From IMG/VR virus record IMGVR_UViG_3300029258_002378, positions 1 through 53,745 of that record: 53,745 bases of DNA; one strand, 5' to 3'. The notes beneath the pieces are model-generated. The model was not told the origin of the DNA. It saw only the letters and a list, made by a program, of their open reading frames with translations, and did no database searches. This document shows, in pieces, positions 8,900-53,745 of the stretch. The stretch is from a virus. Lineage: Duplodnaviria; Caudoviricetes. The translations under genes and the position numbers were made by a program. The stretch's first letter is position 1, and every line of letters starts with the position of its first letter.

Positions 8900-9442
8900 T
8901 TACGAATCTTTTTGTGCTCGTTTTTCGTGGTCTGTTGGTGTTTCCTCTGTTGAGCGGCGTAATGTCGTTTCAGCAATTTCACTGTACGTTGATTCAAGCA
9001 CGTCCCTTTCTTGGTTAAGATTACGGTTTTCTGGATTGGCTTTTTCTGCTGAGAATTTGTCACCATATCGTGTCCGAAGTTTGGCGATGTTCTGCGCCCA
9101 CAAATCATGGATAGTGATACTACGTGAACGGCAGTACAGGGTAACATACCATAACAAATCACCAAACTCTTCGTCGAGATTCGGTATATCTGGTGGTATA
9201 TCGTAAAAAATTGCCTTTTTTACCACGTCCATCATCTCGCCTGATTCAGTGGCGCAACCAATTATTGCGTGCAGCATATCACGACTTATACGTTTGACCT
9301 GAAAATGAGGCGAGCACAGTTGGCCGACAACATATGAGTGCTGGGCGAATGTCGCTTGGGGTGTTTGTCCTTCGGGCATAAAAATGGGCCCTTTCCCTGC
9401 AATATGTATGCTAAGCTCGAAATGTTTAACGGGGCTGAACAT
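8900..9442 (-). CDS. MazG-like nucleotide pyrophosphohydrolase
   Basis: GCATESGEMMDVVKK...EEFGDLLWY...NIAKLRTRY. Confidence 0.88.
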   Translation of the reverse strand: MFSPVKHFELSIHIAGKGPIFMPEGQTPQATFAQHSYVVGQLCSPHFQVKRISRDMLHAIIGCATESGEMMDVVKKAIFYDIPPDIPNLDEEFGDLLWYVTLYCRSRSITIHDLWAQNIAKLRTRYGDKFSAEKANPENRNLNQERDVLESTYSEIAETTLRRSTEETPTDHEKRAQKDS

Positions 9443-39740: not shown

Positions 39741-40327
39741 TGGCGGCATATACAGACTATGACGAAGGTATTTCTGATACTGGCCAAGATTGTTGTATGA
39801 AGATGAACGATTCCGGGTATAGTGAAACTCGCACCACTGATTATCATATTGCTGATTCAGCAGATGCCGATCGTTGGATAACTGGGATGAGGTGGGCTAG
39901 CGTCGATATTCCCCAAGGAGCAACGATTGATGGTGCAGTTGTAAATGTCTACATCGAAAACAATAATTACTGGGATAACTTATACACCACAATATGGGGA
40001 GAAGATGCAGACGATGCAAATGACTGGGCGAGTAACGATAATCCTCTCGATCGTGTAAGTACAACTGCTACTGTGAATTGGGGAGATGGATCAGGTGAAG
40101 GATTTGGGCAGTGGATCGAAAGTCCCGACATTTCAACAATCATCCAAGAGATTGTTAATCGGGCTAGTTGGGCAGGAGATCATCTTGTACTATGTATCGA
40201 AGGACGAACATCGGGAACTACTTACAATAGTCGGCAGTATTCAATGAATCAAGACATAGGGTACGCACCAACTTTGGAAATTGATTACACGGCAGGTGGA
40301 AATCCGATCGTCTGCATAGCGGCGTAA
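39740..40327 (+). CDS. Putative virion protein with DNRLRE-like beta-sandwich
   Basis: DIPQGATIDGA.V...PDISTIIQEIV...APTLEIDY pattern; SD GGAG. Confidence 0.6.
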   Translation: MAAYTDYDEGISDTGQDCCMKMNDSGYSETRTTDYHIADSADADRWITGMRWASVDIPQGATIDGAVVNVYIENNNYWDNLYTTIWGEDADDANDWASNDNPLDRVSTTATVNWGDGSGEGFGQWIESPDISTIIQEIVNRASWAGDHLVLCIEGRTSGTTYNSRQYSMNQDIGYAPTLEIDYTAGGNPIVCIAA

Positions 40328-40337
40328 ATTATAAAGA

Positions 40338-40778
40338 GTGTATTCCATGACAGAAAAAAGGCAAACATCTATGACCATGAAGTCGAAAAAACCAATCGGT
40401 GAAATGAATGGGCTTTGGGGTATTTTACTGAAAGTCCTATTGGTGACATTTGTTCCATGGGCAACATTTATCACATACAATCAAATCCTTGATAACGATT
40501 TTCGCGGACAAGGACGACGTTGGACGGCAACTGATGCTGAGGTACAGACAAAGACGATCATATCTGAACTTATCATCTTTGTCCATGAGGAATTGAGGAA
40601 ACACGAAAACAGTGGTCATGCTGTTCTGCAAGCTCGTATAGCATTTCTTGAGCGTGTATTTCCAGAGATCGTCGATTGCGAAAGCGACCGCATCGAAATC
40701 CTCCGAGCAATACAGCAAGACATTCATTCTTATGCCCAATTCGTAATGACTAAGCAACGTGAGTCGGAGGAGGGTTAA
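40338..40778 (+). CDS. Single-TM membrane protein (possible lysis accessory; start uncertain)
   Basis: Hydrophobic LWGILLKVLLVTFVPWATFI; last gene of the late operon. Confidence 0.55.
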   Translation: MYSMTEKRQTSMTMKSKKPIGEMNGLWGILLKVLLVTFVPWATFITYNQILDNDFRGQGRRWTATDAEVQTKTIISELIIFVHEELRKHENSGHAVLQARIAFLERVFPEIVDCESDRIEILRAIQQDIHSYAQFVMTKQRESEEG

Positions 40779-40845
40779 TTGGGGGGCAACCACTGATTGA
40801 CAGGGGAAACATATCGACTTATGTCGATTCATTGATACAATGGCC

Positions 40846-41080
40846 TATGTTTGGGGTATGTTCGTACAGGGCCGTAAATCGCCTGTAACGCGCTCGTCTG
40901 GGGGAACGACATATCCCCCCGCCCCCCGGCGTCGATGCGTGCAGGCGTGATATACGCCCCCCTAGCAGATGCGTTGTCGCCGACGCTTGACTGTGCATTA
41001 ACGTCCCCCGTAGGGGGGACAATATTCGGGGTATGTTCGGGGGATATACGATCGGGCGTATGTTCGGGGTATGTTCGGGG
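40846..41080. repeat. Cluster of 11-bp TATGTTCGGGG direct repeats
   Basis: Exact copies at 41032, 41059 and 41070; variants at 40846, 40857 and 41021. Confidence 0.85.
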
Positions 41081-41337
41081 GGTTCGATTGAGCGTGATAA
41101 TCGTCTCCTGTGCAATCGAGGAAGGGGAACGATTCATGTCCCACGACACATGCAGAAGGACGATACGTGCAATCCAGCGCGCCCGTACGGCATGCTATAT
41201 GTCGAACATCGGAACGAAACGACATACAACACACAACACGGGCGTCTTGTGTCGCCAACACGGTCCCTCCACGGGGGGAATATCCCATACGTCGAAACGA
41301 TGGATGGAAACGCTACACGACGATCCAATGCTGCCAT

Positions 41338-41370
41338 AAAAAAAGCCCCCCGGCGTAATGCCGGGAGGCG
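41338..41370 (-). terminator. Rho-independent terminator ending the early operon
   Basis: Minus strand GCCTCCCGGC-ATTAC-GCCGGGGGGC followed by T7. Confidence 0.88.
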
Positions 41371-41394
41371 TGACAAGGGGGAACGGGAAAACAG

Positions 41395-41592
41395 TCAAGC
41401 GGCGGGGTTGAATCCTACGCGCTGCTTGAATGTCGTCAACCGATTGTTGATTATTCGGCGAATTACTCGTCCATGCGACATTCCACGCCCCGCACACCTG
41501 GCAATTGTTCGAGCGATTACCCTTTCTCGTGCAGTGTTAACACGGCGCGCTAGCTCACGATCCATGTAAGCAATGGTGATTTGACGTTTCAT
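41395..41592 (-). CDS. Small basic hypothetical protein
   Basis: Between 41596..41808 and the terminator; Arg-rich. Confidence 0.55.
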   Translation of the reverse strand: MKRQITIAYMDRELARRVNTARERVIARTIARCAGRGMSHGRVIRRIINNRLTTFKQRVGFNPAA

Positions 41593-41595
41593 GCT

Positions 41596-41808
41596 TTATG
41601 ACTTTGTCGTAATAGTGACGGTGATGGCGTCGATCCCTTCAACCGCCTTCTTGTCAAGATAAACATTAGTGACGACTGCGTCTTCCTCTTCGTCGACTCG
41701 GAACACTGCCTTTCGCTTTGTGTCCCGTTCCCTTTGCATTACGACTTCGGCGATTACGTTCGTTGTTGCCGTCTTCTTTGTCGTTGACTTCTTCGTTGTC
41801 GCTGGCAT
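41596..41808 (-). CDS. Small protein with N-terminal TTKKSTTKK tail
   Basis: SD AAGGAG; MPATTKKSTTKKTATT followed by a short beta-rich domain. Confidence 0.8.
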   Translation of the reverse strand: MPATTKKSTTKKTATTNVIAEVVMQRERDTKRKAVFRVDEEEDAVVTNVYLDKKAVEGIDAITVTITTKS

Positions 41809-42790
41809 TGACTTGCTCCTTTTTAATCCTTGAGCGTGCTGACTTGATGCCGCCCCTGATTCCTCTGCTACGTAGCAGTTGACGGATACGGCGCTGTTCT
41901 ACCCGATTTCCCTTATCATATTGTTTCACAAGCAATTCTAATGATGTATTGTCGATCGTTTGCTGTAATGCAGCTCCTTTCTGTCCCTTCTTGCCTTTCG
42001 ATGCAGCAACGCCATCGAACACTGCACCATGTAGTAGTGAGGGAACTTTGCCATCGAGCGCCATTGCTGTGGATGTCACATCGATATTTAATGTGAGCGC
42101 GGGTTCGCCAGGGAATTCGCTTTCGATACGGAATTGTCTTGCACCACCACATCGTAATGCTGTGTCTCGCACTGTCGTCAAATCAAGAATGATTCGATCA
42201 AGTGTGGCAGACGACTTAATTGTGATGGCTGGATGATCCGCACGTTTCCGAATATCATCGATGGACTCATGTCCTTCTTCGTTTCCCTCATGGCGATAAA
42301 TGAACTTGTTGATTGCCGCACAGATATCAGCGTCCAACGACTTCTGTCTTTCGCGGGGGTCCTTGTCATAGTAGTACGGAATGGAGTCGAGCACATATGA
42401 GTGTTCGCCTTTCCGTGCATACAACCAAATTACCCAGCAATCGACTTCATCAATTGTTCGTGTACGACTCCAGAATCCCCAGAAATGAAAATCGCCAACA
42501 TCAACTGTTAGATGTGTCTTTGTATGGTCCCACTTAACGTCGTATTGGCAGAACCCGATATACTCCTGTTTAGTTGCATCGCTTGATTCGTTGTCTTCGA
42601 GATCGGATGAAGGAACTAGTTCATCGACGGGTACAATCAAACGATCGCCATCTTCAAAGTGAACGAGTGCCGTACCGTTACGGCGACATTGCTTTACTGT
42701 TCCGGGATAGTCTTCTCCGTTATCTGACCATATTACTGAGGTTCCTTTCTTGAGCTTTGTCGTCCTTGACGTTTCACAGTGTTTACCCAT
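41666..42790 (-). CDS. Multi-domain protein: N-terminal Tudor-like domain and C-terminal basic helical module
   Basis: SD AAGGAG; GTSVIWSDNGEDYPGTV...VHFEDGD; QRRIRQLLRSRGIRGG. Confidence 0.8.
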   Translation of the reverse strand: MGKHCETSRTTKLKKGTSVIWSDNGEDYPGTVKQCRRNGTALVHFEDGDRLIVPVDELVPSSDLEDNESSDATKQEYIGFCQYDVKWDHTKTHLTVDVGDFHFWGFWSRTRTIDEVDCWVIWLYARKGEHSYVLDSIPYYYDKDPRERQKSLDADICAAINKFIYRHEGNEEGHESIDDIRKRADHPAITIKSSATLDRIILDLTTVRDTALRCGGARQFRIESEFPGEPALTLNIDVTSTAMALDGKVPSLLHGAVFDGVAASKGKKGQKGAALQQTIDNTSLELLVKQYDKGNRVEQRRIRQLLRSRGIRGGIKSARSRIKKEQVNASDNEEVNDKEDGNNERNRRSRNAKGTGHKAKGSVPSRRRGRRSRH

Positions 42791-42877
42791 AAGCGTTGCT
42801 CCTTTACGTGCAAGAGTGCACGTTATCTCAACGTCTTGTCAATGTAAACTGACATCGACTGGGAAAAGAAAATCATT

Positions 42878-43111
42878 TTATGCGCCCGGTTCACGATGTT
42901 TTAACTGCAAGATCATATCGTCCTTCTTGATTCGCGGTATATGTCGTCGCAGCCGTCGGAAGGAACGAATCTTGATTACCCTTTTCGTCGTTAAGTTGGT
43001 TCCGACGTAACCACCATTGGGTAATTCGTAATCGATGCGAACTGGGACAATCTTGCCCGACACTTTTACTGCATATATGCCACCAACGTATACATCTGCT
43101 TTCCGAACCAT
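42878..43111 (-). CDS. Small basic beta-rich hypothetical protein
   Basis: SD AAGGAG; VGGIYAVKVSGKIVPVRI...GTNLTT. Confidence 0.8.
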   Translation of the reverse strand: MVRKADVYVGGIYAVKVSGKIVPVRIDYELPNGGYVGTNLTTKRVIKIRSFRRLRRHIPRIKKDDMILQLKHREPGA

Positions 43112-43129
43112 TGTGTTCTCCTTGCGTTA

Positions 43130-43369
43130 CTACCAGTTACGGTAGTCATCACGAAGCGAAATATACGATTCAAGCCAGGCGGACAATGGCAACGATCGAA
43201 GTCGTAGCACGCCAACACTTGACGAATACCAGCTACATGATGCATTATGAGAAAAGTACCAATAACCACGACCGGGCGACAGTTGAACATCATCCCCCGT
43301 ATGTGCTTTAATGAAACGTTCAACTTCACGAGCAGTTCGTGGTCTACGATCGGGAGTGAGGTCAGTCAT
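43130..43369 (-). CDS. Hypothetical protein
   Basis: Probable start MTDLTP just after the upstream stop codon. Confidence 0.6.
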   Translation of the reverse strand: MTDLTPDRRPRTAREVERFIKAHTGDDVQLSPGRGYWYFSHNASCSWYSSSVGVLRLRSLPLSAWLESYISLRDDYRNW

Positions 43370-43377
43370 CGTTGTTT

Positions 43378-43632
43378 TTACGCCGGCCTGATATGACAAC
43401 CGAATGATGCCCAGCGACCATCTGCGAACGGCCACTGCTTGAATGGCGAATATTTAACAACTCTGACTACTGTGTTATCCCCCCGCCGTTTGATGATTGC
43501 AGTGATATCCGTCTGTGACTCCGGCCAACACGAATCGTAGCGAAGCATATCCATCGGAAATGCACCAGTGAATGTAATCCTTGCTACGTGCCGCCACTTC
43601 ATGGGTTCGATTAACTTGATCGGGTTTGGCAT
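43378..43632 (-). CDS. Hypothetical protein (FPMDMLRYD motif)
   Basis: SD AAGGAG; G.FP.DMLRYD.C.P...RW.SFG pattern that I recall from small phage early proteins. Confidence 0.75.
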   Translation of the reverse strand: MPNPIKLIEPMKWRHVARITFTGAFPMDMLRYDSCWPESQTDITAIIKRRGDNTVVRVVKYSPFKQWPFADGRWASFGCHIRPA

Positions 43633-43749
43633 TACGTTACTCCTTGTAAACGTGTAGTTTTAAAACAAGAAAGCGGCGAGGGGCGTTCCCGCCGATCGCC
43701 ACGTATACTTCATGCTAATCGCTCAGTATGATACGTGAGCGATTGGTTG

Positions 43750-44208
43750 TTATGACTTCTTGGTCGTTGACTTCTTGGTCGTTGACTTCTTCGCCGTCTT
43801 CTTCGCCGTCGACTTCTTTGTCGTTGACTTCTTGGTCGTTGCACGAACACCGAGTCCCCCCGTATGTCCCCGACGACGAAGTGCACGACGAATCCGCTTC
43901 TTATCCTCGGGATCATCCGATGTCTTCAGCTCAGCGAGCAAATCCTTAACCTCCTTTTCAATCTCAGCCGGTGTCATTTCTTCGTGCAGTGAACGACGTC
44001 CCCGCTTCGAGATCGTCACATCACCGCGCTTCACTGCTGCGGCAGTGTACGTATGAGTTTCACCATCATCGAATTCGACAGTGATATTCCCCTTCGCTGT
44101 CTTGACGACTGAACCGCCGTACGTTTCACCGTCGCTCCACAGTGCATTGACGCGCTGTCCATCAGTGAATGAAACCGTGGCATTTCCGTTATTGTTACGA
44201 GTCGACAT
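43750..44208 (-). CDS. Tudor-like domain + basic helical module + H1-like KKSTT tail
   Basis: SD AGGAG; GQRVNALWSDGETYGGSV...VEFDDG; KKRIRRALRRRGHTGGL; TTKKS repeats. Confidence 0.85.
   Translation of the reverse strand: MSTRNNNGNATVSFTDGQRVNALWSDGETYGGSVVKTAKGNITVEFDDGETHTYTAAAVKRGDVTISKRGRRSLHEEMTPAEIEKEVKDLLAELKTSDDPEDKKRIRRALRRRGHTGGLGVRATTKKSTTKKSTAKKTAKKSTTKKSTTKKS
43753..43810. repeat. 58-bp direct repeat, copy 1 (15-bp and 12-bp tandem units encoding KKSTT/KKTA)
   Basis: Identical to 45477-45534. Confidence 0.92.
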
Positions 44209-44335
44209 TGCTTTGCTCCTATTACAAAGCGATTTAAAAAGTGGCAATCATCATCAGATCATGTCCGCCACGACATGATGACGTGCTCAGTCATGGAGCA
44301 CGTTTCGATTTACATTGTCAAGGCCCCCATCTCGA

Positions 44336-44533
44336 TCAAGATACTGTTTCCCACAAATGAAAACCATCAAGATCGATTACTAATCGAACGTAACCGTGAC
44401 GCTCGAGCTCTTTCATCTTGTCGTAGAATGCGCCCGCGCTCATGCCGTGGTCGATTCGGATCTTACCGACTGGACGTGGACCGTTTCGTTTGAGATAAGC
44501 GATGATCCGCTTGTCGAAGTCGTTGAGTTCCAT
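44336..44533 (-). CDS. Small winged-helix DNA-binding protein
   Basis: LNDFDKRIIAYLKRNG...MSAGAFYDKMKELERHGYV (AsnC/MarR-like wHTH); SD AGGAG. Confidence 0.75.
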   Translation of the reverse strand: MELNDFDKRIIAYLKRNGPRPVGKIRIDHGMSAGAFYDKMKELERHGYVRLVIDLDGFHLWETVS

Positions 44534-44586
44534 TGTGCCGTCTCCTGTGTTGTATGCTACGCGCTATGAATTGCTCGCGTGTTCAT

Positions 44587-44772
44587 TTATGTGGCATTGC
44601 GGACAAGACGTCGAATCTGCCGCTTCCATGTCGCCATGTCATCAGTGTGAACATTGAATGTTCCTAGCCAACGACCACGAATTGTTGATACGCTCCACAC
44701 TTCTCTACTATTACGTAGAGCACGAATAAATTGGACATCATAACGCTTATTGTTGATTCGCACTGTCATCAC
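44587..44772 (-). CDS. Small hypothetical protein
   Basis: SD AGGAG; first ORF after the structured leader. Confidence 0.65.
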   Translation of the reverse strand: MMTVRINNKRYDVQFIRALRNSREVWSVSTIRGRWLGTFNVHTDDMATWKRQIRRLVRNAT

Positions 44773-44799
44773 TCATACTCCTGTTTAGACGTGCATGAA

Positions 44800-44839
44800 G
44801 AAACGAAAATACAGCTCAGCGCGTTTCCGCGTTGAGCTG
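44800..44839 (-). terminator. Terminator-like hairpin with GAAA loop
   Basis: Minus strand CAGCTCAACGCG-GAAA-CGCGCTGAGCTG followed by TATTTTCGTTTC. Confidence 0.7.
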
Positions 44840-45136
44840 CTAGATTTACTCGGGGGCAGTTTTCCGATTTGCACGACTTTGCGGTCAAGCACCTACGTGC
44901 GGAGTTCGCCGGATTCACGGATCAATGTTCAGAGCCATATTTCGCGAGAAGGGGTAAACATCGAGCGCTGACCGGCCAAACCTCGGTAAGGTTGAGAATC
45001 GTCATTCTCGGGCGTCGCTGAGTTGATTCGTTGTTTTCCCCTTCGCTCCTCAGACATCGTTGTTCCGATCGGAACGTTTCCAACGTTGCCTGGCACAACT
45101 TGAAGGGGATCGCGGCGTTTCGTGTCAGCGCCTGGT

Positions 45137-45148
45137 TGTCAAAGAGCA
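45137..45148 (-). promoter_or_regulatory. boxA-like antitermination element TGCTCTTTGACA
   Basis: One mismatch to rrn boxA TGCTCTTTAACA; lies at the predicted transcript start. Confidence 0.75.
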
Positions 45149-45155
45149 CAGGGTC

Positions 45156-45184
45156 ATTATCGTAGATGCCGGGGGGTATCGCAA
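45156..45184 (-). promoter_or_regulatory. Sigma70-type early promoter
   Basis: TTGCGA-17 bp-GATAAT on the minus strand with an AT-rich upstream segment. Confidence 0.7.
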
Positions 45185-45361
45185 GGAAAAATGAGTATTT
45201 TCGCTAAAATTGTGGAGATTTTCAGGTGATACCCCGCTTTACGCCCCCGAAAACGCCGGTACGAACATTCCCCTAAGACGCCCTTTCCCAATTTGACACC
45301 TCCCAAAACTGGGTTAAAGATGACCAGTGTGTCATCTTTTAACGGTGGCATTATCGACACG

Positions 45362-45393
45362 AAAAATACCCCCGCCAAGTATGGTGGGGGCAT
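45362..45393 (-). terminator. Rho-independent terminator after the H1-like gene
   Basis: Minus strand ATGCCCCCACCA-TACT-TGGCGGGGGTAT followed by TTTT. Confidence 0.75.
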
Positions 45394-45425
45394 CTTGTGT
45401 CAATGAGTAACAATTGCCAGCGGCG

Positions 45426-46193
45426 TTATGCGGCGGGGCTACGTGTTTTTTTCTTGGTCGTTGACTTCTTGGTCGTTGACTTCTTGGTCGTTGACTTCTT
45501 GGTCGTTGACTTCTTCGCCGTCTTCTTCGCCGTCTTCTTTTGATCGCTGATGCGATATCCTTGCGCTCGCAGTCGAGCACGAATCTTCCTCTTCTCCGTT
45601 TGATCCTCTTCGTGGTCGAGCATGGCCAGCAATTGATCGATTGTATGCTCTGGCTGTCGACCGCCCGTCTTCTTCGTTGTTGTCTTCTTTGCTGTTTTCT
45701 TAGTTGTCTTCTTCTTGGCCATTTGTTCGTGTCCTTTCACGTTTGACCATTTAGAGAATGAGCGCTCAGATTTTCTGAGTCGACTGAAACGAGTACACTC
45801 GGCGTTGAATTCTCGAGCAGTTTTTGTTGACCGCTTTTTCAAGTCATCGAGTGTGGACAATCCTCGTTCAATGTTGGCAATGATTCGGTCTGCTTCCTCC
45901 TTATGCTTTCGTAATACGATCATTTCTTGTCGTAATCGATCGGCCGATTCCGAAGTGTTCTGTACTAGTCTGTGATACTGAGCTATTTGCTCTCGATTCC
46001 TTGGTTCAACTGGACGTCCAGGACGATACGGGTTTAGATCGAACTTGAACCCTTCGATACGCAAATCCTTAGTTGCCACCATTTTGTACAGTTTAGTACG
46101 TGTCTTCTTGTGTGCGGATTCAAGGTCGTCCCGTATCTTTGTGAGAGTGGTGATGAACTGCTTCGGTGTTTGTTGTCTCGGTGTGCGGGGCAT
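45426..46193 (-). CDS. Coiled-coil protein in frame with a histone-H1-like C-terminal part (own SD/ATG at 45722)
   Basis: AAAGGA before internal MAKKKTTKKTAKK; module IDQLLAML...KRKIRARLRAQG; KKSTT repeats. Confidence 0.75.
   Translation of the reverse strand: MPRTPRQQTPKQFITTLTKIRDDLESAHKKTRTKLYKMVATKDLRIEGFKFDLNPYRPGRPVEPRNREQIAQYHRLVQNTSESADRLRQEMIVLRKHKEEADRIIANIERGLSTLDDLKKRSTKTAREFNAECTRFSRLRKSERSFSKWSNVKGHEQMAKKKTTKKTAKKTTTKKTGGRQPEHTIDQLLAMLDHEEDQTEKRKIRARLRAQGYRISDQKKTAKKTAKKSTTKKSTTKKSTTKKSTTKKKTRSPAA
45477..45534. repeat. 58-bp direct repeat, copy 2 (inside a longer TTCTTGGTCGTTGAC x4 array from 45451)
   Basis: Identical to 43753-43810. Confidence 0.92.
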
Positions 46194-46280
46194 GGAAAAG
46201 ACCCTTGGGGATATAGAACAATCACAGACTCGAAGCGTATATTACCAAACTCGTAGTCGAGTATCAGTATTTTTTTCCAT

Positions 46281-46343
46281 AAAAAAGCCCCCGTCGGGAA
46301 GGAGCAAATACGTGCAACACGCTTTTACCCGCCGGGGACTTTT
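46281..46343 (-). terminator. Terminator-like hairpin with a ~30-nt loop after DNA polymerase
   Basis: Minus strand AAAAGTCCCCGGCGGG...CCCGACGGGGGC followed by T6. Confidence 0.7.
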
Positions 46344-46505
46344 CAACAGTTGCGAACAATGGTGGATTTGCGTTGACCACGTTGGTCATTGCGAAAAGAA
46401 GTCCATATCCTAACTGCCTTATTCGATTGCTCTACTTCATGTCACACCTCCTCTTGTTGGTTATGTCTCTATCACTCCCCTGGAAAAGAGAGCGTATTGT
46501 AACAA

Positions 46506-48617
46506 TTACGCTGCTCGCATGAAGCCATATTTTTTTGCTTTTTCCTTGTTCCCCCAGTGGGACCCATTAACCTCAACATCCGCAGTAATTGGGACAAAGA
46601 ATGAGTCGTAATCTTCCATAATATCAAGCACCAATTGTGGCACAATGTTTTCTTCATTGCGGGGAATCTCAAGAACAATCTCATCGTGGATGGTCTTGAT
46701 GATCTTTGATCGTAGTTTACGCTCTTTAAGCTCCTTCCAAATCGTGACCATTGCAACTTTGATCTGGTCGGCCGATGTCCCCTGACACATATAATTTAGA
46801 GCGGTGTATGCACGACTTAGACGGATATGATATCGACGTCCAAACGGATTGGTTACAAACCCCTTCTCTGCAAGGATTGCTTTGAGTTTATTCGTTGTTC
46901 GTCGTACTGATGGAAATGATCGATGATATGATGCAACTAGTTTGGATGCCTCTCGCTTTGTTGTTGGTAATCCCTTCCTTGTCAATGTTTCAGCTTGTGT
47001 GCCTGGACCTGACCCATAGATGATCCCAAAGTTTACCGCTTTTGCTCGTTTGCGTTGCTCTTTTGTAACCTCACGTTTTGGTTTGTTATATATTTCCGCA
47101 GCAACGGCGAGGTGGATATCATCTGCAATTGCTCGTGCCATTATCTCATCTTTAGCGAAGTGCACAAACATTTTCATTTCGACTTGCTCGTAATCGAAAT
47201 GCCAATTTCTACGTCCGTTGCGGGGGATGAAACATTCCCGAGGACCAAAGACACGTGGTACATTTTGCAAGTTGGGGCTTGAGGACGAGAATCGTCCTGT
47301 CATTGCTTCACTCTGATTGAATCGACAATGCAATATACCAATCTCTCTGCCGCTCGACGTAACATGCACATTTGTTGCTTCGTTAATAATGTGGTCGTAA
47401 TACGTAGAAACCATTTTCAACAATCGGCGACAATACAACACAAGTGGAGGTAATAATTCTCTCCGATTGAGTTTATGGTTTCGACGTACTGCATGTACGG
47501 CATTGTAGAATTTTCGACCACTCCATCCCTCCTCACTCGAATCACGAATAATCGATGCTAGCGGCTTACTAACATAGCGGATAATGGCGTACTCATCGAA
47601 ACTCCAATTGCCCCCTCCTGTCTTTGCACCACCCTTCTTTCCCTTCTTCGGTTTAGTCTTATATTTCAGAGGGATTCCAACTTTGTTGAACGCCGCTTCC
47701 ATTTGCAGTCGACTATTTGGATTGAATCGATCTGATATCTCAACTTCAATTTCCTCGCCCTTCCGCTTCTTTTTGACCTTGATGGGGAGAACGAGGCGAT
47801 CGAGTATTCTTTGCATGAGTTCAATATCGCGTTGTGCCTCCGTACGTAATTCCTTTGCTCGTGTTATGTCAACTTGCACACCATGATCTTCCATCTCGAT
47901 GCACACGTACATAAGCATAAGTTCGGTTTCAAGTAATTCCGGAGATGCTTTAACAACGCGCTGCCGTATCGCAAACCACAGTAGTAATGTCGTTTCAACA
48001 TCCCAGTAGACGCGCTTCTTTACTGATTCAATTGGTGCATCATCAAAGCCAAGTTTGAATCCCCGATTTTTCACTTTCGCTTTTGTGTTCTCTTTTCTCA
48101 ACCAATCGATAATCTCAAACTTATCAGCTGTCGATCGTCCTAGTAATCGATCACCAAGGAATGCTAGCTTGTGTGACGGCAACATGCCATTGTACAGCTT
48201 ACTAATGATGAGCGTACATTCGATCCTTGCTTTAGCGTTGTATATGTCAACGCCTTCTTGAGCAAACATTTTCAAATCAAACTTAGCATTGTGGAAGACA
48301 ATAGTAAGTGTGGAGTCATTGAACAACCGCTTTATCCATGTGATATTCGCCGATGTGTTCAGCATGAAACCCCGCTCACCCTTTTCCGTTATGTACGCCC
48401 AACAGAATATTCTATCGCCGTGATAAGGGTCGAGTCCTGTCGTTTCCGTATCAAGTGCAATGACTTTGCCTTTTAAGCAAGGTCCGCTTGACGCATCGCT
48501 ACAGTTTCGACTCCGCAATTTCTTAGCACGTCTCCCCCGTCGCCGTTCCTGTACTCCGAAAGGAAGATGACCTTGCATATCCCCGCTTGGACGATTCGTT
48601 GAGCACACATTTTGCAT
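46506..48617 (-). CDS. polA: Family A DNA polymerase with 3'-5' exonuclease (start uncertain)
   Basis: Exo I ALDTETTG, Exo II FHNAKFD, TGRFSSSSPNLQN, motif A DYEQVE, motif B RAKAVNFGIIYG, motif C IHDEI. Confidence 0.95.
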   Translation of the reverse strand: MQNVCSTNRPSGDMQGHLPFGVQERRRGRRAKKLRSRNCSDASSGPCLKGKVIALDTETTGLDPYHGDRIFCWAYITEKGERGFMLNTSANITWIKRLFNDSTLTIVFHNAKFDLKMFAQEGVDIYNAKARIECTLIISKLYNGMLPSHKLAFLGDRLLGRSTADKFEIIDWLRKENTKAKVKNRGFKLGFDDAPIESVKKRVYWDVETTLLLWFAIRQRVVKASPELLETELMLMYVCIEMEDHGVQVDITRAKELRTEAQRDIELMQRILDRLVLPIKVKKKRKGEEIEVEISDRFNPNSRLQMEAAFNKVGIPLKYKTKPKKGKKGGAKTGGGNWSFDEYAIIRYVSKPLASIIRDSSEEGWSGRKFYNAVHAVRRNHKLNRRELLPPLVLYCRRLLKMVSTYYDHIINEATNVHVTSSGREIGILHCRFNQSEAMTGRFSSSSPNLQNVPRVFGPRECFIPRNGRRNWHFDYEQVEMKMFVHFAKDEIMARAIADDIHLAVAAEIYNKPKREVTKEQRKRAKAVNFGIIYGSGPGTQAETLTRKGLPTTKREASKLVASYHRSFPSVRRTTNKLKAILAEKGFVTNPFGRRYHIRLSRAYTALNYMCQGTSADQIKVAMVTIWKELKERKLRSKIIKTIHDEIVLEIPRNEENIVPQLVLDIMEDYDSFFVPITADVEVNGSHWGNKEKAKKYGFMRAA

Positions 48618-48901
48618 GGGAACACCGTGGTGAACATTATCATTTCATTCTCGAATGAACGAAGGGCCAAGATTGCGTTTTCTTCGGCATGTAAACAACC
48701 ACAATTACCTTGTATGCCACTACAACTATCGTGACTGAGTCCCTTTGCTGGTCCATTGTATCCAATAGACAAGATTCGTTTCATGTCACCAGACGTAATG
48801 ACAGCTCCGACTCGGAGACGTTTACATAGTGAACGATTTGCCCACATGAGCGCTGTTTTCATGTGCAGCGATTCACGACTTGGTCTATGTGTACTTTGCA
48901 T
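48473..48901 (-). CDS. dCMP deaminase
   Basis: RSLCKRLRVGAVI, GYNG, HAEENA and PCKMC. Confidence 0.92.
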   Translation of the reverse strand: MQSTHRPSRESLHMKTALMWANRSLCKRLRVGAVITSGDMKRILSIGYNGPAKGLSHDSCSGIQGNCGCLHAEENAILALRSFENEMIMFTTVFPCKMCAQRIVQAGICKVIFLSEYRNGDGGDVLRNCGVETVAMRQADLA

Positions 48902-49701
48902 TAAAAAATACCTCTTGCTTTCATATCTTTACGATATGCGTGCAGTGAACCAGCAAAATAGGTAAATGTCCCCATAGGAATATCACATGATTGAGCGAAG
49001 TAGTGTTGCAATCGTAATGCAAGTGCAATGTCTACTGGAAAGTGCACGAGGTAGTCGCATGAGCGCATTACGTAAATTAGATCAAGTCTTTTGTTCCGTC
49101 GCATAATTTGATAGAACATGGAACATGGGACACGTCCCCCACCACCCATATTGCACAAATCTCGTCCTTGCTGCACAATGTTTGCCGGTCCGTCTGGGGG
49201 TGTTACATCGAGTGCACAAATGTTTGAGTGAATCGTGATAATTCCCTGCCGAGTGTCAGGCTTTGACTTGAGTTCGGCAATGATAGATGGAAGTTGAGGC
49301 GTAATTCGTTCGCTATACGTGTAAGCGAATTGCCCCCCATGCATGAACTCATTCCACAACTCAGCACGTGCTTCCCATGCATTACCGGGATTGAGTTGTT
49401 CACCCGATACTCGATCACTAAATTCTTGTTCAATGTAATCCATTACTTGCTTGTACGTTGTCGCTGGGGCTCCCTTCAATTTGCCAGTAAGCACGTAGTT
49501 AACCATGACAGCAATGCCCGGATTATTCCATTGCCAATTTACAATCTTAAATGCATACCCCTGCATTTCGATTGTTTCGTAGTTGGGATCATCGTGAATG
49601 TCTTTGTCTTGCATAGTCTGTGGATGGACCCGAACGCCCATTTCCCACAGGTCACGCTCGACTTCACGAACTGCTTCAAGTGGTGTACTGTAGATTCTCA
49701 T
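48901..49701 (-). CDS. Thymidylate-synthase-fold enzyme with dCMP-type Asp (candidate dCMP hydroxymethylase/modifier)
   Basis: YTYSERI, DTRQ, RVPC, MRSCDYLVHFPVD and GSLHAY; Asp at the position of E. coli ThyA Asn177. Confidence 0.85.
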   Translation of the reverse strand: MRIYSTPLEAVREVERDLWEMGVRVHPQTMQDKDIHDDPNYETIEMQGYAFKIVNWQWNNPGIAVMVNYVLTGKLKGAPATTYKQVMDYIEQEFSDRVSGEQLNPGNAWEARAELWNEFMHGGQFAYTYSERITPQLPSIIAELKSKPDTRQGIITIHSNICALDVTPPDGPANIVQQGRDLCNMGGGGRVPCSMFYQIMRRNKRLDLIYVMRSCDYLVHFPVDIALALRLQHYFAQSCDIPMGTFTYFAGSLHAYRKDMKARGIF

Positions 49702-50286
49702 TTATTGCCTATCCTTTGTCCAGTTTTTTACCCATTCAAGTTGACGACGTAACACACGCCGTCCATTATGGCCACAGCGCATACAATACGCTGGGTGATA
49801 TCCAAATCTCATGTTAGTGCCATGAGGAAAGAGTAATGATTGATGAAACCAGCATGATCCACGAGTATAATCTTTACGTGAAAATCCAAGCGCATTGAAC
49901 GCAACGTTGCCCATAATAAGGACAGCACGTGGTCGGATGATATCCATTTCAGCAATGATGTACCGCCCGCACTTTGCAATCTCATTATCTGTGGGGTTTC
50001 GATTGTGGGGTGGACGGCATTTAACGACGTTGGTAATCCATACTTTGTCGAGGATTTGCAATTCTCGTAGTACATCGTTAAGTAATCGCCCACATTGCCC
50101 CGAAAACACTTTGCCTGTCAATGCTTCGTTTGCACCCGGCGCTTCACCGAGTAATACGACGTTAGCAAGAGGATTTCCCCGACCAACAATGCATACATGA
50201 TCGGATGAACGATGGAGAGTGCAATGCCGGCAACGTGGATTATGTACGCCGCGTATTTTCGCGAGTTGTCCTCGACGTCCAATCAT
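49702..50286 (-). CDS. Family 4 uracil-DNA glycosylase (Fe-S type)
   Basis: CRHCTLH, GEAPG, TNVVKCRPP.NR.P and YHPAY. Confidence 0.9.
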   Translation of the reverse strand: MIGRRGQLAKIRGVHNPRCRHCTLHRSSDHVCIVGRGNPLANVVLLGEAPGANEALTGKVFSGQCGRLLNDVLRELQILDKVWITNVVKCRPPHNRNPTDNEIAKCGRYIIAEMDIIRPRAVLIMGNVAFNALGFSRKDYTRGSCWFHQSLLFPHGTNMRFGYHPAYCMRCGHNGRRVLRRQLEWVKNWTKDRQ

Positions 50287-51206
50287 GTTTCATCATCACT
50301 TTCGATGTCTTCATATTGGGCCCCATACGGAAGACATTTAGTGAAATCAAGTTTAGCTGGCATAAGGCTGGGCGGGATGTTCTTTGTCAAATGCCCCTGA
50401 TGCTCCAACCATCGTCGTTTAATACGTCGAAACGGACCGTACTTTTCATTGGCGAGCATCAATTCAGGATCTTGATATTGCGCCCACGCATCTTCAACTT
50501 TTTGGTGCCACCTAATTATGTGACGCCACGCTGGTGACTTATCTTTCTCTCTGGCCCATCTGCCTTTCAATTTTTTATGAAGGTCGAATTGCGAGTAGAT
50601 AAACGGTAACGATTTGAAGTGATGCAGTTGTGCAGATGTCAAATACCATCTAAACGCAATGTGACTAACATCCAGATCTTCAAATTGATCGGCAATTTCT
50701 CTTGCTATGACATAGGCGATTGCTGCGTCCATCATTCCCATATAACCAATATATGACGTGCGGGAATAAAACGTCAGCGTGGGATTATTTGACGCATCTC
50801 CACGGAACGTTGCCGATTGTAAACAACCTCCCCACCGATGCTTTTTTGCCATTCGTCGTGGATCGTTGAACAGCATACCTACGCAAGCACCGTCTCGTGC
50901 TTCGCCGGCGAGGATTGTGGCTGCTCCATTAATAAATGCCTCGAGTGAGTCACTTGCAATGTATTCACGAGTTAATCTCGTCCAACGTGATTGATTCAAC
51001 CACAATTCTTTGCCGATGTCCAATTCATATTCACAAGAGTGGGCAAGAATTATGACATTGAAGTGGTGAGTTTCAATATTAAGGATAGCATCGGGATGTT
51101 GCGAATCGAGCATATCCCGGACAGCTGTGTGCATAGCGTCAGTAAGGGTTGACTCTTCAATGAAACAACTGTTACCAGTGTAGGATGGTCCACGTACTAA
51201 TGACAT
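50283..51206 (-). CDS. Divergent thymidylate-synthase-fold protein
   Basis: GGCL...LTFYSRTSYIGYMGMMD...SAQLH aligns with PC...RSCD-x7-D...SLHAY of the neighbouring TS-like gene. Confidence 0.6.
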   Translation of the reverse strand: MSLVRGPSYTGNSCFIEESTLTDAMHTAVRDMLDSQHPDAILNIETHHFNVIILAHSCEYELDIGKELWLNQSRWTRLTREYIASDSLEAFINGAATILAGEARDGACVGMLFNDPRRMAKKHRWGGCLQSATFRGDASNNPTLTFYSRTSYIGYMGMMDAAIAYVIAREIADQFEDLDVSHIAFRWYLTSAQLHHFKSLPFIYSQFDLHKKLKGRWAREKDKSPAWRHIIRWHQKVEDAWAQYQDPELMLANEKYGPFRRIKRRWLEHQGHLTKNIPPSLMPAKLDFTKCLPYGAQYEDIESDDET

Positions 51207-51856
51207 CAGTAGTTCGTCCTTTGTCTGAATACGTTAACTGTTGCCTTCTTCATGTAGAGAATGTAGATGTCATTGAGTGTGAACTCATACGTAGCGAACA
51301 TTGCACCGAGTTGTCGCCATGCTCGATTTAAGTGTTTGGTGAAGTTCTCTTTGTCGGTCTCCATATGAGTGTTTTTCCACGGTTTGTTCTTTAGACAGTT
51401 CGCTGCGAGACCGAGCTCCATGATGATACGAAATGCGTACTGTTCAATGGGTCGTTGCCCCATTGTTTTCTGGAAACCGGGGAACGCCCAATCCTTCGGC
51501 TCAAAGTCAACGATGATAGATGCCTCGACAAGGAAGTGGAGAGCATCGGCGATCTCCTCCCATACATGCCGAATTTTTGACCTTTCATCCCATTTTTGCC
51601 GCCATTGCCACAAATCCTGGGGCACATCCTCAAGTGCTTCGGCGAGTTCTTCTGTGACACGCCAGAACATATCCTTGACCCGCATCTGGACACGGGGATC
51701 GTTAATCCCCCACGCTGGAGACGGGACAACTGCACCGTTTGCTCGTTCAATCTCTTCATATTTGTCCATGAGCGATGCTTGCTTCACATAGATATGTTTA
51801 AGCACGGGCCCTTCGGGGATCTCAATCTCGGTCGATTCTACGTCGTCAATGTTCAC
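51206..51856 (-). CDS. All-alpha dimeric dUTPase/dCTPase-like pyrophosphatase
   Basis: TEELAEA, EEIADALHFL, KNKPWK and Y.KK..VN.FRQ..NY; SD AAGGAG before GTG 51856. Confidence 0.85.
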   Translation of the reverse strand: MNIDDVESTEIEIPEGPVLKHIYVKQASLMDKYEEIERANGAVVPSPAWGINDPRVQMRVKDMFWRVTEELAEALEDVPQDLWQWRQKWDERSKIRHVWEEIADALHFLVEASIIVDFEPKDWAFPGFQKTMGQRPIEQYAFRIIMELGLAANCLKNKPWKNTHMETDKENFTKHLNRAWRQLGAMFATYEFTLNDIYILYMKKATVNVFRQRTNY

Positions 51857-51858
51857 TG

Positions 51859-52311
51859 CTATACTCCTTGTTTTGTGACGAGTTGGTAACCCAGCACACA
51901 GTATCCCAATAAGTCGAGCAATGTGTCGTGGATTGATTCGCCACATTCCTCATCTCGTAATTGCTGAGTCAAATTCGCAATGCGAACAACTTTTGAGTCA
52001 ATCCGAATAAACACTCCCAATACTCCCCATCGAAGAATTGGTGCACTCCCATATGCTGAGTGTTTTCGTAGTAAAAAATCAGCAAATGTGCCAATATCAA
52101 ACCCCTTTTTGTCCTTTAACATCGAAACTACGATTGCACCAAACGAAATGAAGAACTCTTGAGGATTATCGAACGTAACACCCTTATGGAATGTTCTGTT
52201 TATGCTATCTGTCATCTGGAATAGCACATAATTCCCCGTCACTGGGGGATTACGATCGAGCATTTGTTCAATGACCGGAATAATGTCATCCTTTGTTTCG
52301 ATTAGCAGCAT
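51859..52311 (-). CDS. Nucleotide-modification-associated domain 1 (DUF1599-like)
   Basis: RKHSAYG...RIDSK..RI.NL...ESIHDTLLDLLGY; SD AAGGAG. Confidence 0.8.
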   Translation of the reverse strand: MLLIETKDDIIPVIEQMLDRNPPVTGNYVLFQMTDSINRTFHKGVTFDNPQEFFISFGAIVVSMLKDKKGFDIGTFADFLLRKHSAYGSAPILRWGVLGVFIRIDSKVVRIANLTQQLRDEECGESIHDTLLDLLGYCVLGYQLVTKQGV

Positions 52312-53745
52312 TGTGTTTTCTCCTTGAGTAGTTACGTAACCACATGACGAAATCTGGGTTTTTCATGTATCCCCGTCCATCATCACGACGCGCTAAGCAT
52401 CTAATCTGAACTAGCCCGCCAATTAAGTCTTTTGCAGTAATAATGTCACCAATAAAATCGCCGAGTGATTCAGGTGTGACATAACGACAATTAAGCAGTG
52501 CTTGCATAACTTTTTCTTTGCCCGTTGGTACCCACTGGTCAATGACTTTTTCAATCTCATCTGTTGTTGCCATTGTCGTTGACTGCTTGATGATTCGACT
52601 ATACGTATCGTATGCTAGACTTTGTTTTGCATACGCTTCTCGTAAAAACGAACAAGCATATCGAACATGACTTGCTTGAACGATAAGTACCTCTCCCGTT
52701 TTGTCTGAACTAAATGTACGTGCAGCAACAGCTGCTGCGATCTTTGCAATCTTTACTCGGATATTCTCTCCTTGTACGAGAGGAATTGTAGCCGAGTATT
52801 TGCTTCCAAAGCGTATAGCCGAATCAATCACTGTTCGTGTTGCTTCATTTGTGAATTTGACTTGGTCGGGTTTTCGACTCCACGCCCATAGCACAAGAGC
52901 ACGACACAATGAAATAGGGTATTTTTCTCCATCAGTAAGATCATCAGTGCATAAAGCATTAATAATCTCACTTGGCACTTCATCAGTGGCAACGCTTAAT
53001 ACAAAGTCGAATCGACTGATATCTTCGTTATTTCCCACAAGTTCACGAACTGCTTCTATACCCGTATTGTATGATCGTAATGGGCGTCCGCTTCGAGGAT
53101 TTGACAACCATATCAATCGAGTGTTTGCTTGTGTTGCTTCTTTGACGATCTTTGTAATTTCGGCAACACCTTCTGATCGTACTCGTGACATTCGGCCAAA
53201 GTCATTTGGATCCAATGCAGATGCTTCATCTATAACTACAAGTCGGTTGTTATTTAATGGGATAACACCCCATGTTATAAACCACCGCTTTGATACTTGC
53301 TGTACACCCCCAACAAGCCCAGCGAACGAGCAATTTTCACCTGATGCAACTTCGCCTAGTTTATAGAATCGACATAGACGTTCAGTAACATATCCTTTCC
53401 CGCATCTTGTATCTCCAATGACCAGCACATCGAGCATTCCTCGGGAGATTTCCTCACCGTTGAACTCAAACGCTGCAACGCTATGAAACACAAGATCAAC
53501 AGCAATGTGTAGATCAGGACGATACCGAATTTTTGTTACATGGCGTGATTGCCAATCTGCTATGTCGTTAAGATGTACGTTGATCTTACGTCGACCGGGC
53601 GAAAAGACTTTCAATTGCTCTCGCAATTTTTTAGTCAGTTTGAATGATTCGATTTCTCCCTGAGTGGGCACTGCACTGTCAAATAAGTGGACGGCTGTTT
53701 GATCCTTTGGGTTGGGGACAGTAACTCCTCGAAATCTGTATGATG
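52286..53745 (-). CDS. C-terminal MCM-type AAA+ helicase half of the primase-helicase fusion
   Basis: RGMLDVLVIGDTRCGKG (Walker A region), SGENCSFAGL, W.ITWGVIPLNN...IDE (Walker B), SNP and ISRFD (Arg finger) match MCM box motifs. Confidence 0.9.
   Translation of the reverse strand, partial: SYRFRGVTVPNPKDQTAVHLFDSAVPTQGEIESFKLTKKLREQLKVFSPGRRKINVHLNDIADWQSRHVTKIRYRPDLHIAVDLVFHSVAAFEFNGEEISRGMLDVLVIGDTRCGKGYVTERLCRFYKLGEVASGENCSFAGLVGGVQQVSKRWFITWGVIPLNNNRLVVIDEASALDPNDFGRMSRVRSEGVAEITKIVKEATQANTRLIWLSNPRSGRPLRSYNTGIEAVRELVGNNEDISRFDFVLSVATDEVPSEIINALCTDDLTDGEKYPISLCRALVLWAWSRKPDQVKFTNEATRTVIDSAIRFGSKYSATIPLVQGENIRVKIAKIAAAVAARTFSSDKTGEVLIVQASHVRYACSFLREAYAKQSLAYDTYSRIIKQSTTMATTDEIEKVIDQWVPTGKEKVMQALLNCRYVTPESLGDFIGDIITAKDLIGGLVQIRCLARRDDGRGYMKNPDFVMWLRNYSRRKHNAANRNKG
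53602..53745. repeat. Terminal direct repeat, right copy
   Basis: Identical to 1-144. Confidence 0.95.

Follow-up and report, generated by a model that had tools for sequence, protein, structure and literature searches.

A possible boxA-led leader RNA in a gene-free, terminator-bounded gap of an uncultivated siphovirus genome

A gene-free stretch on the minus strand of an uncultivated siphovirus genome (IMG/VR record IMGVR_UViG_3300029258_002378, analysed over all of its 53,745 nucleotides (nt) and referred to throughout as the window) may hold a structured leader RNA. The stretch is a gap of 653 nt (44773-45425, minus strand) between a 255-aa gene (45426-46193) and a 61-aa gene (44587-44772). 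It contains two predicted intrinsic terminators, T1 and T2, and between them a promoter-like site, a boxA-like motif, and a series of potential helices. A tentative reading is that this element is the 5′ leader of an accessory unit made up of the 61-aa gene, a 65-aa winged-helix gene, a hammerhead ribozyme, and Tudor-domain genes, and that it acts as a boxA-led antitermination leader in the style of ribosomal RNA (rrn) operons or as an attenuator leader. A first-pass annotation of the bare sequence had described the element as a structured RNA of about 345 nt with a promoter, a boxA, a multi-helix body, and a terminator. That observation is partly confirmed, being real as sequence and weak as statistics, and its interpretation is partly supported, being plausible in outline and unproven. 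A check of the sequence places every one of its motifs and helices on the minus strand, where the features of the gap are as follows.

45359-45393, minus strand: terminator T1 of the upstream unit (DNA polymerase and 255-aa gene), CCCCCACCA-UACU-UGGCGGGGG, then UAUUUUUCGU
45184-45179 (TTGCGA) and 45161-45156 (GATAAT), minus strand: candidate sigma-70-like promoter TTGCGA-17-GATAAT, 9 of 12 positions
45148-45136, minus strand: boxA-like motif TGCTCTTTGACA(A), that is TGCTCTTTGACAA
45131-45124 / 44972-44965, minus strand: closing helix GCGCUGAC / GUCAGCGC
44964-45132, minus strand: multi-helix domain, closed in the fold by the long-range helix 45132-45124 / 44972-44964
45109-45102 / 45044-45037, minus strand: inner helix UCCCCUUC / GAAGGGGA
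45092-45087 / 45056-45051, minus strand: inner helix CAGGCA / UGUCUG
Minus strand: inner helix CGUUG / CAACG
45009-45004 / 44999-44994, minus strand: hairpin GAGAAU / AUUCUC
44993-44989 / 44983-44979, minus strand: hairpin AACCU / AGGUU
44963-44955 / 44931-44923, minus strand: hairpin CGAUGUUUA / UGAACAUUG, with a second CCCCUUC (44954-44948) in its loop
44840-44806, minus strand: GAAA-loop hairpin, then AUUUUCGUUUCUU
44795-44840, minus strand: terminator or attenuator T2, GCAGCUCA-ACGCG-GAAA-CGCG-C-UGAGCUGU plus AUUUUCGUUUC

T1 starts 33 nt 3′ of the stop codon of the 255-aa gene; its hairpin, which a pattern scan listed on the plus strand only, contains one A·C mismatch on the minus strand. 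T2 has a stem of 12 pairs capped by a GAAA loop (−21.1 kcal/mol; z = −3.37; 1 of 200 shuffles) and, as judged from its letters, combines the G+C-rich stem-loop and the following U-rich tail (AUUUUCGUUUCUU, on the transcribed strand) of a putative intrinsic terminator. On energy, z score, and U tract, the terminal GAAA hairpin of the first-pass annotation is a convincing predicted terminator, and its absence from the pattern-scan list is attributed to the interruption of its stem. Rather than a stand-alone RNA of 345 nt, as once proposed, the stretch is better seen as one portion of a 653-nt unit that runs from terminator to terminator (45425-44773).

Further terminator-like hairpins lie on the minus strand at 46305-46287, 43694-43674, and 41369-41345, and the intervals between minus-strand terminators all hold protein genes except the one from T1 to T2. 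A distance of 22 nt separates the U tract of T2 from the GTG start of the 61-aa gene, while the hairpin at 43694-43674 ends approximately 40 nt before the next gene. Both are so near the following starts that downstream expression must rely on read-through and, since no space for a promoter is left 3′ of T2, the genes beyond it would be expressed by read-through only. This need for read-through is the best argument that the idea of an antitermination leader is reasonable.

The gap is most likely non-coding. Chunks of 75 codons from real genes have codon scores of 0.325 ± 0.125 with a 5th percentile of 0.12, and the open frames of the gap score from −0.18 to 0.15, only a 55-aa frame (0.148) exceeding that percentile. 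A 75-aa open reading frame (ORF; 44922-45149) overlaps the element, and its conserved translation had been named in advance as a result that would speak against a structured RNA. It does not behave as a conserved gene: it lacks a Shine-Dalgarno sequence, its codon score is 0.00, and it has neither a relative nor an entry of its own among 5.8 billion clustered proteins, where it was not called as a gene. It also draws no match from Pfam at E up to 0.1 and none from PHROG better than E = 0.15.

On the strand of the genes the layout is coherent, passing from promoter-like site to boxA-like motif, helices, terminator, Shine-Dalgarno sequence, and gene, and the Tudor-like genes that the leader was said to control are present downstream. 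The promoter candidate ends 7 nt 5′ of the boxA-like motif. The 13-mer of that motif occurs exactly once in the window, in non-coding DNA of the sense strand, and agrees at 12 of 13 positions with the E. coli rrn 13-mer; with at most one mismatch to the latter, 1 match is found and 0.08 is expected. The gamma-proteobacterial boxA consensus, given as GYTCTTTAANA in a passage of PMC5725501, is matched at 10 of 11 positions, although this consensus may not be that of the host. A literature search for the exact 12-mers returned apparently unrelated work only, and a word search of the text of PMC3177189 and PMC2800207 yielded neither a boxA sequence nor the word "consensus."

The multi-helix domain encloses a hairpin of about 73 nt (45109-45037) and two short hairpins (45009-44994 and 44993-44979). 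As part of the multi-helix body proposed earlier, the inner helices hold up in the centroid of a 351-nt ViennaRNA fold, whereas the long-range helix appears only when 44960-45135 is folded alone; forcing it at full length gives −118.3 kcal/mol versus a free minimum free energy (MFE) of −121.4 kcal/mol, a cost of 3 kcal/mol. The 176-nt domain 44960-45135 has z = −3.11 with 0 of 200 shuffles as stable, for borders that were picked afterwards to start and end with complementary strands.

Under the proposed mechanism, the polymerase gene and the 255-aa gene, which form the upstream unit, would be transcribed as far as T1 (45393-45359), and a new transcript would begin near 45150, either from TTGCGA-17-GATAAT or from another start in the gap. 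Its first bases would present a host-type boxA, and 3 nt further on the 5′ strand of the closing helix would emerge, to pair with a strand about 150 nt downstream. Left to itself the leader would terminate at T2, just before the next start codon, and the genes 3′ of it would be reached by read-through alone. The boxA would load the host NusB/S10 (Nus) complex on RNA polymerase, as in rRNA operons and at lambda nut sites, and the Nus-modified polymerase would then pass T2 and the later terminators (43694-43674 and 41369-41345). The tethered boxA may also aid formation of the closing helix, in the way proposed for the rRNA leader-trailer helix.

The closest known parallel in layout is the rRNA operon leader. 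Passages of PMC10250234 place the boxA of the rrn leader just after the promoter, describe it as both required and sufficient for assembly of the Nus/SuhB complex, and relay the proposal that the tethered boxA holds the leader strand until the trailer emerges. Common to this leader (as described there) and the window are a boxA-type motif after a promoter-like site and, within a few nt, the 5′ strand of a long-range helix (PMC10250234). In contrast, the window RNA would enclose about 150 nt rather than 16S rRNA, has no boxB hairpin upstream, ends in an intrinsic terminator before protein genes, and spaces boxA and helix by 3 nt, versus the 18-19 nt reported between boxA and boxC in Enterobacteriaceae in the same passages (PMC10250234).

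With lambda nut the element shares the setting of a phage early-type leader, in which a boxA lies upstream of several terminators and a co-directional string of genes. It differs in that no short boxB stem with a 5-nt loop follows the boxA, the next helix being the long-range closing helix; the fold thus places no boxB by the boxA-like motif of the window, and an N-like arginine-rich protein was not searched for. The window boxA is presumably nearer to the rrn form, and the lambda boxA is taken here to be a weaker variant. The HK022 put, EAR, and LoaP leaders resemble the element in that a folded nascent leader is proposed to make the polymerase resistant to terminators without classical N and boxB. 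In HK022 put, a pair of stem-loops acts on RNA polymerase directly. The window element differs from these leaders in having no sequence or Rfam match to them, and its boxA is its only recognizable signal.

A parallel leader occurs among the relatives that were fetched, 16 from IMG/VR and approximately 47 from Joint Genome Institute (JGI) metagenomes (about 63 loci), whose closest polymerases are about 60% identical to that of the window. In one relative, L010, a gap of 863 nt without genes fills the syntenic slot; it holds a strong terminator (9405-9426), and the order within it is terminator, GTTCTTTGACA, 3 nt, a closing helix of 11-12 bp, hairpin, Shine-Dalgarno sequence, and Tudor gene. This repeats the order of the window, with boxA-like motif, 3 nt, and closing helix, and the helix encloses about 125 nt (z = −2.94; 0 of 200 shuffles) where the window encloses about 150 nt. 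L010 (9822-9950) shares a 120-nt non-coding block with a second relative, L084 (5796-5912; nhmmer E = 9e-7 and 1.6e-5), and the core hairpin of the two keeps three pairs through compensatory double changes; long leaders in the syntenic slot can therefore be under RNA-level constraint. L084 also carries, after its 255-aa homologue, a tail (GCGGGGGGTATTTTTCGT) that resembles that of T1, and has a T2-like terminator before the next gene.

The L010/L084 leader and the window element thus occupy the same slot, after a 255-aa-type gene and a terminator and before a hairpin, a Shine-Dalgarno sequence, and a gene. They differ in the topology of their inner helices and share neither sequence similarity detectable by nhmmer nor model similarity. 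A covariance model built from the L010 and L084 leaders (R2) scores them at 146.8 and 127.8 bits, respectively. Pattern scans of IMG/VR for this leader returned the contig of L010 itself and one chance match that R2 rejected, and Rfam at gathering thresholds has no match to the leader in the L010 and L084 loci.

A considerable body of results weighs against a boxA-led leader in the window. The hexamers TTGCGA-17-GATAAT exist as claimed, whereas sigma-70-like sites in general occur at chance frequency, with 3 versus 3.0 expected in 43500-46500 and 25 versus 23.1 in 40000-53745. Likewise, the boxA 13-mer is found where it was reported, but its match goes only weakly beyond chance, since an equally good one arises in 7 of 100 shuffled genomes (p of about 0.07 per genome). 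Its departure from GYTCTTTAANA, as that consensus appears in PMC5725501, is an A-to-G change at position 8, and when 1 mismatch is allowed the 11-nt consensus shows no enrichment (7 matches versus 5.95 expected). As for the fold, the 351-nt body has z = −1.98, 4 of 100 shuffles folding as well, and unbiased 150-nt windows over 45150-44850 range from z = −0.5 to −1.9. When the fair null for the domain is used, namely the best 176-nt window per shuffle, 4 of 80 are at least as stable as the domain itself (−63.3 kcal/mol). The 351-nt MFE structure has a near-zero frequency in the ensemble, and alternative folds lie within 3-5 kcal/mol of it. Folding no better than shuffled controls was one outcome that the first-pass annotation would have taken as refutation; the element folds marginally better than such controls. 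Mechanistically, complexes of the rrn type act mainly on Rho-dependent termination. Passages of PMC10250234 credit the lambda N-dependent transcription antitermination complex (N-TAC) with high resistance to terminators of either kind, Rho-dependent or intrinsic.

The comparative results point the same way. The boxA slot of L084 is degenerate and reads ATTCTTTTCCA, and its domain is indistinct from shuffles (z = −0.29; 76 of 200 as good); among the relatives a boxA at the same place is found in L010 only. Of 64 relative loci, one (L010:9827) contains GYTCTTTRAC, and by the present arithmetic approximately 3.7 occurrences are expected by chance in 481 kb on both strands. R2 finds nothing in 44773-45425, its best match in the window (15.7 bits) lying elsewhere. 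A single-sequence covariance model of the 176-nt domain (R1) found only the window element among the window and 16 loci, 16 whole records, and 40 metagenome loci; a model of this kind is a weak probe, so distant homologues are compatible with the result.

Other searches agree. With blastn and nhmmer, nothing similar to the gap is found in the 16 IMG/VR relatives or in 80 metagenome loci, and blastn against INPHARED gives no match; the collection of homologues called for by the first-pass annotation came to none in the approximately 63 related phage loci. Nor does the element match an Rfam family: over the whole window at gathering thresholds only Hammerhead_II (44239-44310) is reported, and over 44300-45700 at E up to 10 the one match is a spurious snoRNA (13.7 bits versus a gathering score of 100). 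Used as an anchor, the single polymerase sequence returns nothing in IMG/VR and a polymerase alignment (A1) nothing in the genome collection, which leaves no clue to the host. Among the fetched relatives the element, along with its two downstream genes, is an orphan, and the statistics for this candidate, known at present from a single genome, are marginal.

These same data fit an ordinary intergenic spacer, a possibility to be held as tentatively as that of a leader. T1 and T2 would be real, the DNA between them would be a fast-evolving cassette-exchange junction, perhaps with a weak promoter and an operator, and the boxA and helices would be coincidental. The marginal fold, the chance-level promoter-like sites, and the p value of the boxA match are all as a spacer would have them. 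The gap and the two genes after it are missing from every fetched relative, the region 3′ of the polymerase gene is highly variable across relatives and often includes gaps of 200-1000 nt, and one relative (L002) has a short leader only in the syntenic slot. However, a gene-free 550 nt between two good terminators is unusual for a compact phage. The boxA-like motif, moreover, is on the right strand and falls between the −10-like hexamer and the closing helix, an order that recurs in L010, and the leader in the same slot of L010 and L084 is conserved with compensatory changes.

A stand-alone small RNA gene is unlikely. It would produce an RNA of about 345 nt, from approximately 45150 to T2, that acts in trans on host or phage targets, with read-through only incidental. 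A terminator-bounded unit without a gene, ending in a strong hairpin and U tract, is what such a gene would look like, but the 22 nt after T2 hold no promoter for the next gene, so that some read-through is needed. The element also has no homologue and no Rfam family, and its fold is poorly defined.

Less probable still is a conditional attenuator, whether of the riboswitch type or protein-dependent, in which the domain would sense a ligand or a phage protein, candidates being the winged-helix and AsnC-like products, and thereby decide whether T2 forms. Its layout of closing helix, junction, and terminator is aptamer-like, and T2 directly precedes the Shine-Dalgarno sequence. In addition, UCAGCGC (44971-44965) in the 3′ strand of the closing helix has a 7-bp complementarity to GCGCUGA in the 3′ arm of T2 and could serve as an anti-terminator when the helix is open. 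Yet the anti-terminator fold is less stable than the MFE by 12 kcal/mol, about one such leader in ten is expected, by our own estimate, to have a comparable 7-mer match, no known riboswitch matches at E up to 10, and the element is not conserved. A different switch had been suggested earlier, in which the second CCCCUUC competes for its partner strand. This does not survive: the competing pairing costs about 5 kcal/mol and rests on a 7-mer repeat at chance level, approximately 3-4 repeated 7-mer pairs being expected in 350 nt by the present arithmetic.

It is equally improbable that the gap contains unrecognized small protein genes or a decayed gene. Three same-strand frames tile it, of 78 aa (45393-45157), 75 aa (45149-44922), and 49 aa (44918-44769), the latter two sharing a reading frame split by a single TGA. 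Inside the 78-aa frame and 5′ of the noted element lies a frame for a 44-aa basic peptide (45291-45157), with GGGAGGTG 7 nt before its TTG start; on these letters a 44-aa peptide gene is possible. A promoter-like TTGGCG-17-GATAAT (45378-45350) lies upstream, with a palindrome at the expected transcript start. However, the codon scores of the tiling frames (−0.18 to 0.05, the 78-aa ORF having 0.05) fall below the 5th percentile of real genes, the 75-aa frame fails as described above, and no Pfam or PHROG match emerges even when the TGA is read as X. The database matches of the 78-aa ORF are confined to a DUF11 repeat in two giant proteins. Its match to a 2460-aa protein (E = 4e-17) is regarded as spurious, as it covers about 30 residues of that repeat and eight repeat copies sum to inflate the score. 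A pseudogene remnant was likewise rejected after a translated search (tblastx) of the gap against 80 loci, with a best E of 0.067 and no translated similarity.

Apart from the candidate leader, the 5′ part of the gap contains two further features.

45316-45339, minus strand: 9-bp perfect palindrome AAAGATGAC-N6-GTCATCTTT, a candidate RNA hairpin or protein operator
45262-45273, minus strand: motif GGGGAATGTTCG, the single copy in the gap of a motif repeated at 40853-41077 on the plus strand

The strongest fold in the gap is in fact outside the noted element, at 45290-45450 on the minus strand (z = −5.26; 0 of 200 shuffles). This segment holds T1, the palindrome, the second promoter-like site TTGGCG-17-GATAAT, and the Shine-Dalgarno sequence with its TTG start.

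In its plus-strand form, GGGGWATGTTCG, the repeated motif has four copies at 40853-41077, three exact and one with 1 mismatch, at a gene-poor junction of converging modules. The copy in the gap is inverted and lies about 80 nt 5′ of the noted promoter candidate. With up to 2 mismatches, the motif has 15 matches in the window versus 7.5 expected, a number that 0 of 100 shuffles reach, and its four exact matches are confined to 40853-41077 and 45262-45273. It may be an operator or an iteron, perhaps for the 65-aa winged-helix protein. A diverged inverted duplication between 40780-41665 and the gap was considered and rejected, since the two share short motif matches only.

The genes and the ribozyme 3′ of the gap follow on the minus strand, before the Tudor-domain genes.

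44587-44772, minus strand: 61-aa gene, the first after the leader, with an AGGAG Shine-Dalgarno sequence and a GTG start; codon score 0.239
44336-44533, minus strand: 65-aa winged-helix gene, the second (HTH_24, E = 2.9e-4, 20.8 bits versus a cut-off of 21.9); codon score 0.369
44239-44310, minus strand: type II hammerhead ribozyme (RF02276, 47 bits versus a gathering score of 37, full length), between the 65-aa gene and a Tudor-domain gene on the same predicted transcript

The 61-aa protein has a weak match to the AsnC ligand-binding domain (PF01037, E = 0.0045, under the family cut-off). Together, the 61-aa and 65-aa products weakly resemble the ligand-binding and winged-helix halves of Lrp/AsnC regulators, as separate proteins in reversed order and with both matches below the Pfam cut-offs; neither has a relative in IMG/VR or the fetched loci. 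The hammerhead would cleave the polycistronic RNA between the winged-helix and Tudor genes. Type II hammerheads are also present in the relatives L008 (8543-8612, plus strand, 44.1 bits) and L091 (9596-9663, plus strand, 49.1 bits), and in all three genomes they are located just 5′ of Tudor-domain or 374-aa-type genes. Lysine-rich KKSTT/KKTA repeats form the C-terminal tails of the 255-aa protein and of the Tudor-domain protein; they are encoded by near-identical 15-nt repeats (43750-43850 and 45440-45540, minus strand) at which public assemblies break.

The genome is complete, with direct terminal repeats. PHROG matches identify a siphovirus-type structural module on the plus strand and, on the minus strand, a primase, a helicase, a Sak4-like annealing protein, an exonuclease, a family-A DNA polymerase, a dCMP deaminase, and thymidylate synthases. 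No tRNA or transfer-messenger RNA (tmRNA) is found in the window. Near-identical DNA occurs in sediment and seawater metagenome runs, 0 of 6 of which are on record as RNA. Contigs from three of the four runs compared are identical to the window across the gap, the fourth having fragments nearby only, so there are no sequence variants to exploit.

If the candidate leader is taken together with that of L010 and L084, a broader and rather unlikely proposal is that they represent a recurring, undescribed phage device. This would be a cassette in the style of rRNA operons, in which a promoter-proximal boxA and Nus factors give terminator resistance for accessory genes and chaperone the closing helix of a folded RNA with a function of its own as sensor, decoy, or processing substrate, the cargo being swapped between related phages. 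Free swapping of the folded cargo would explain why the window and L010/L084 share layout and not sequence. For now the chief value of the analysis is that it maps, in an unstudied phage group, a control region with two terminators, a candidate operator motif, a leader, and a hammerhead. If the boxA-led reading is true, phages other than lambdoid ones, in this case an uncultivated siphovirus from marine sediment, would borrow the rRNA-type boxA of the host to pass serial terminators, and this signal would be coupled to a folded leader in front of accessory genes.

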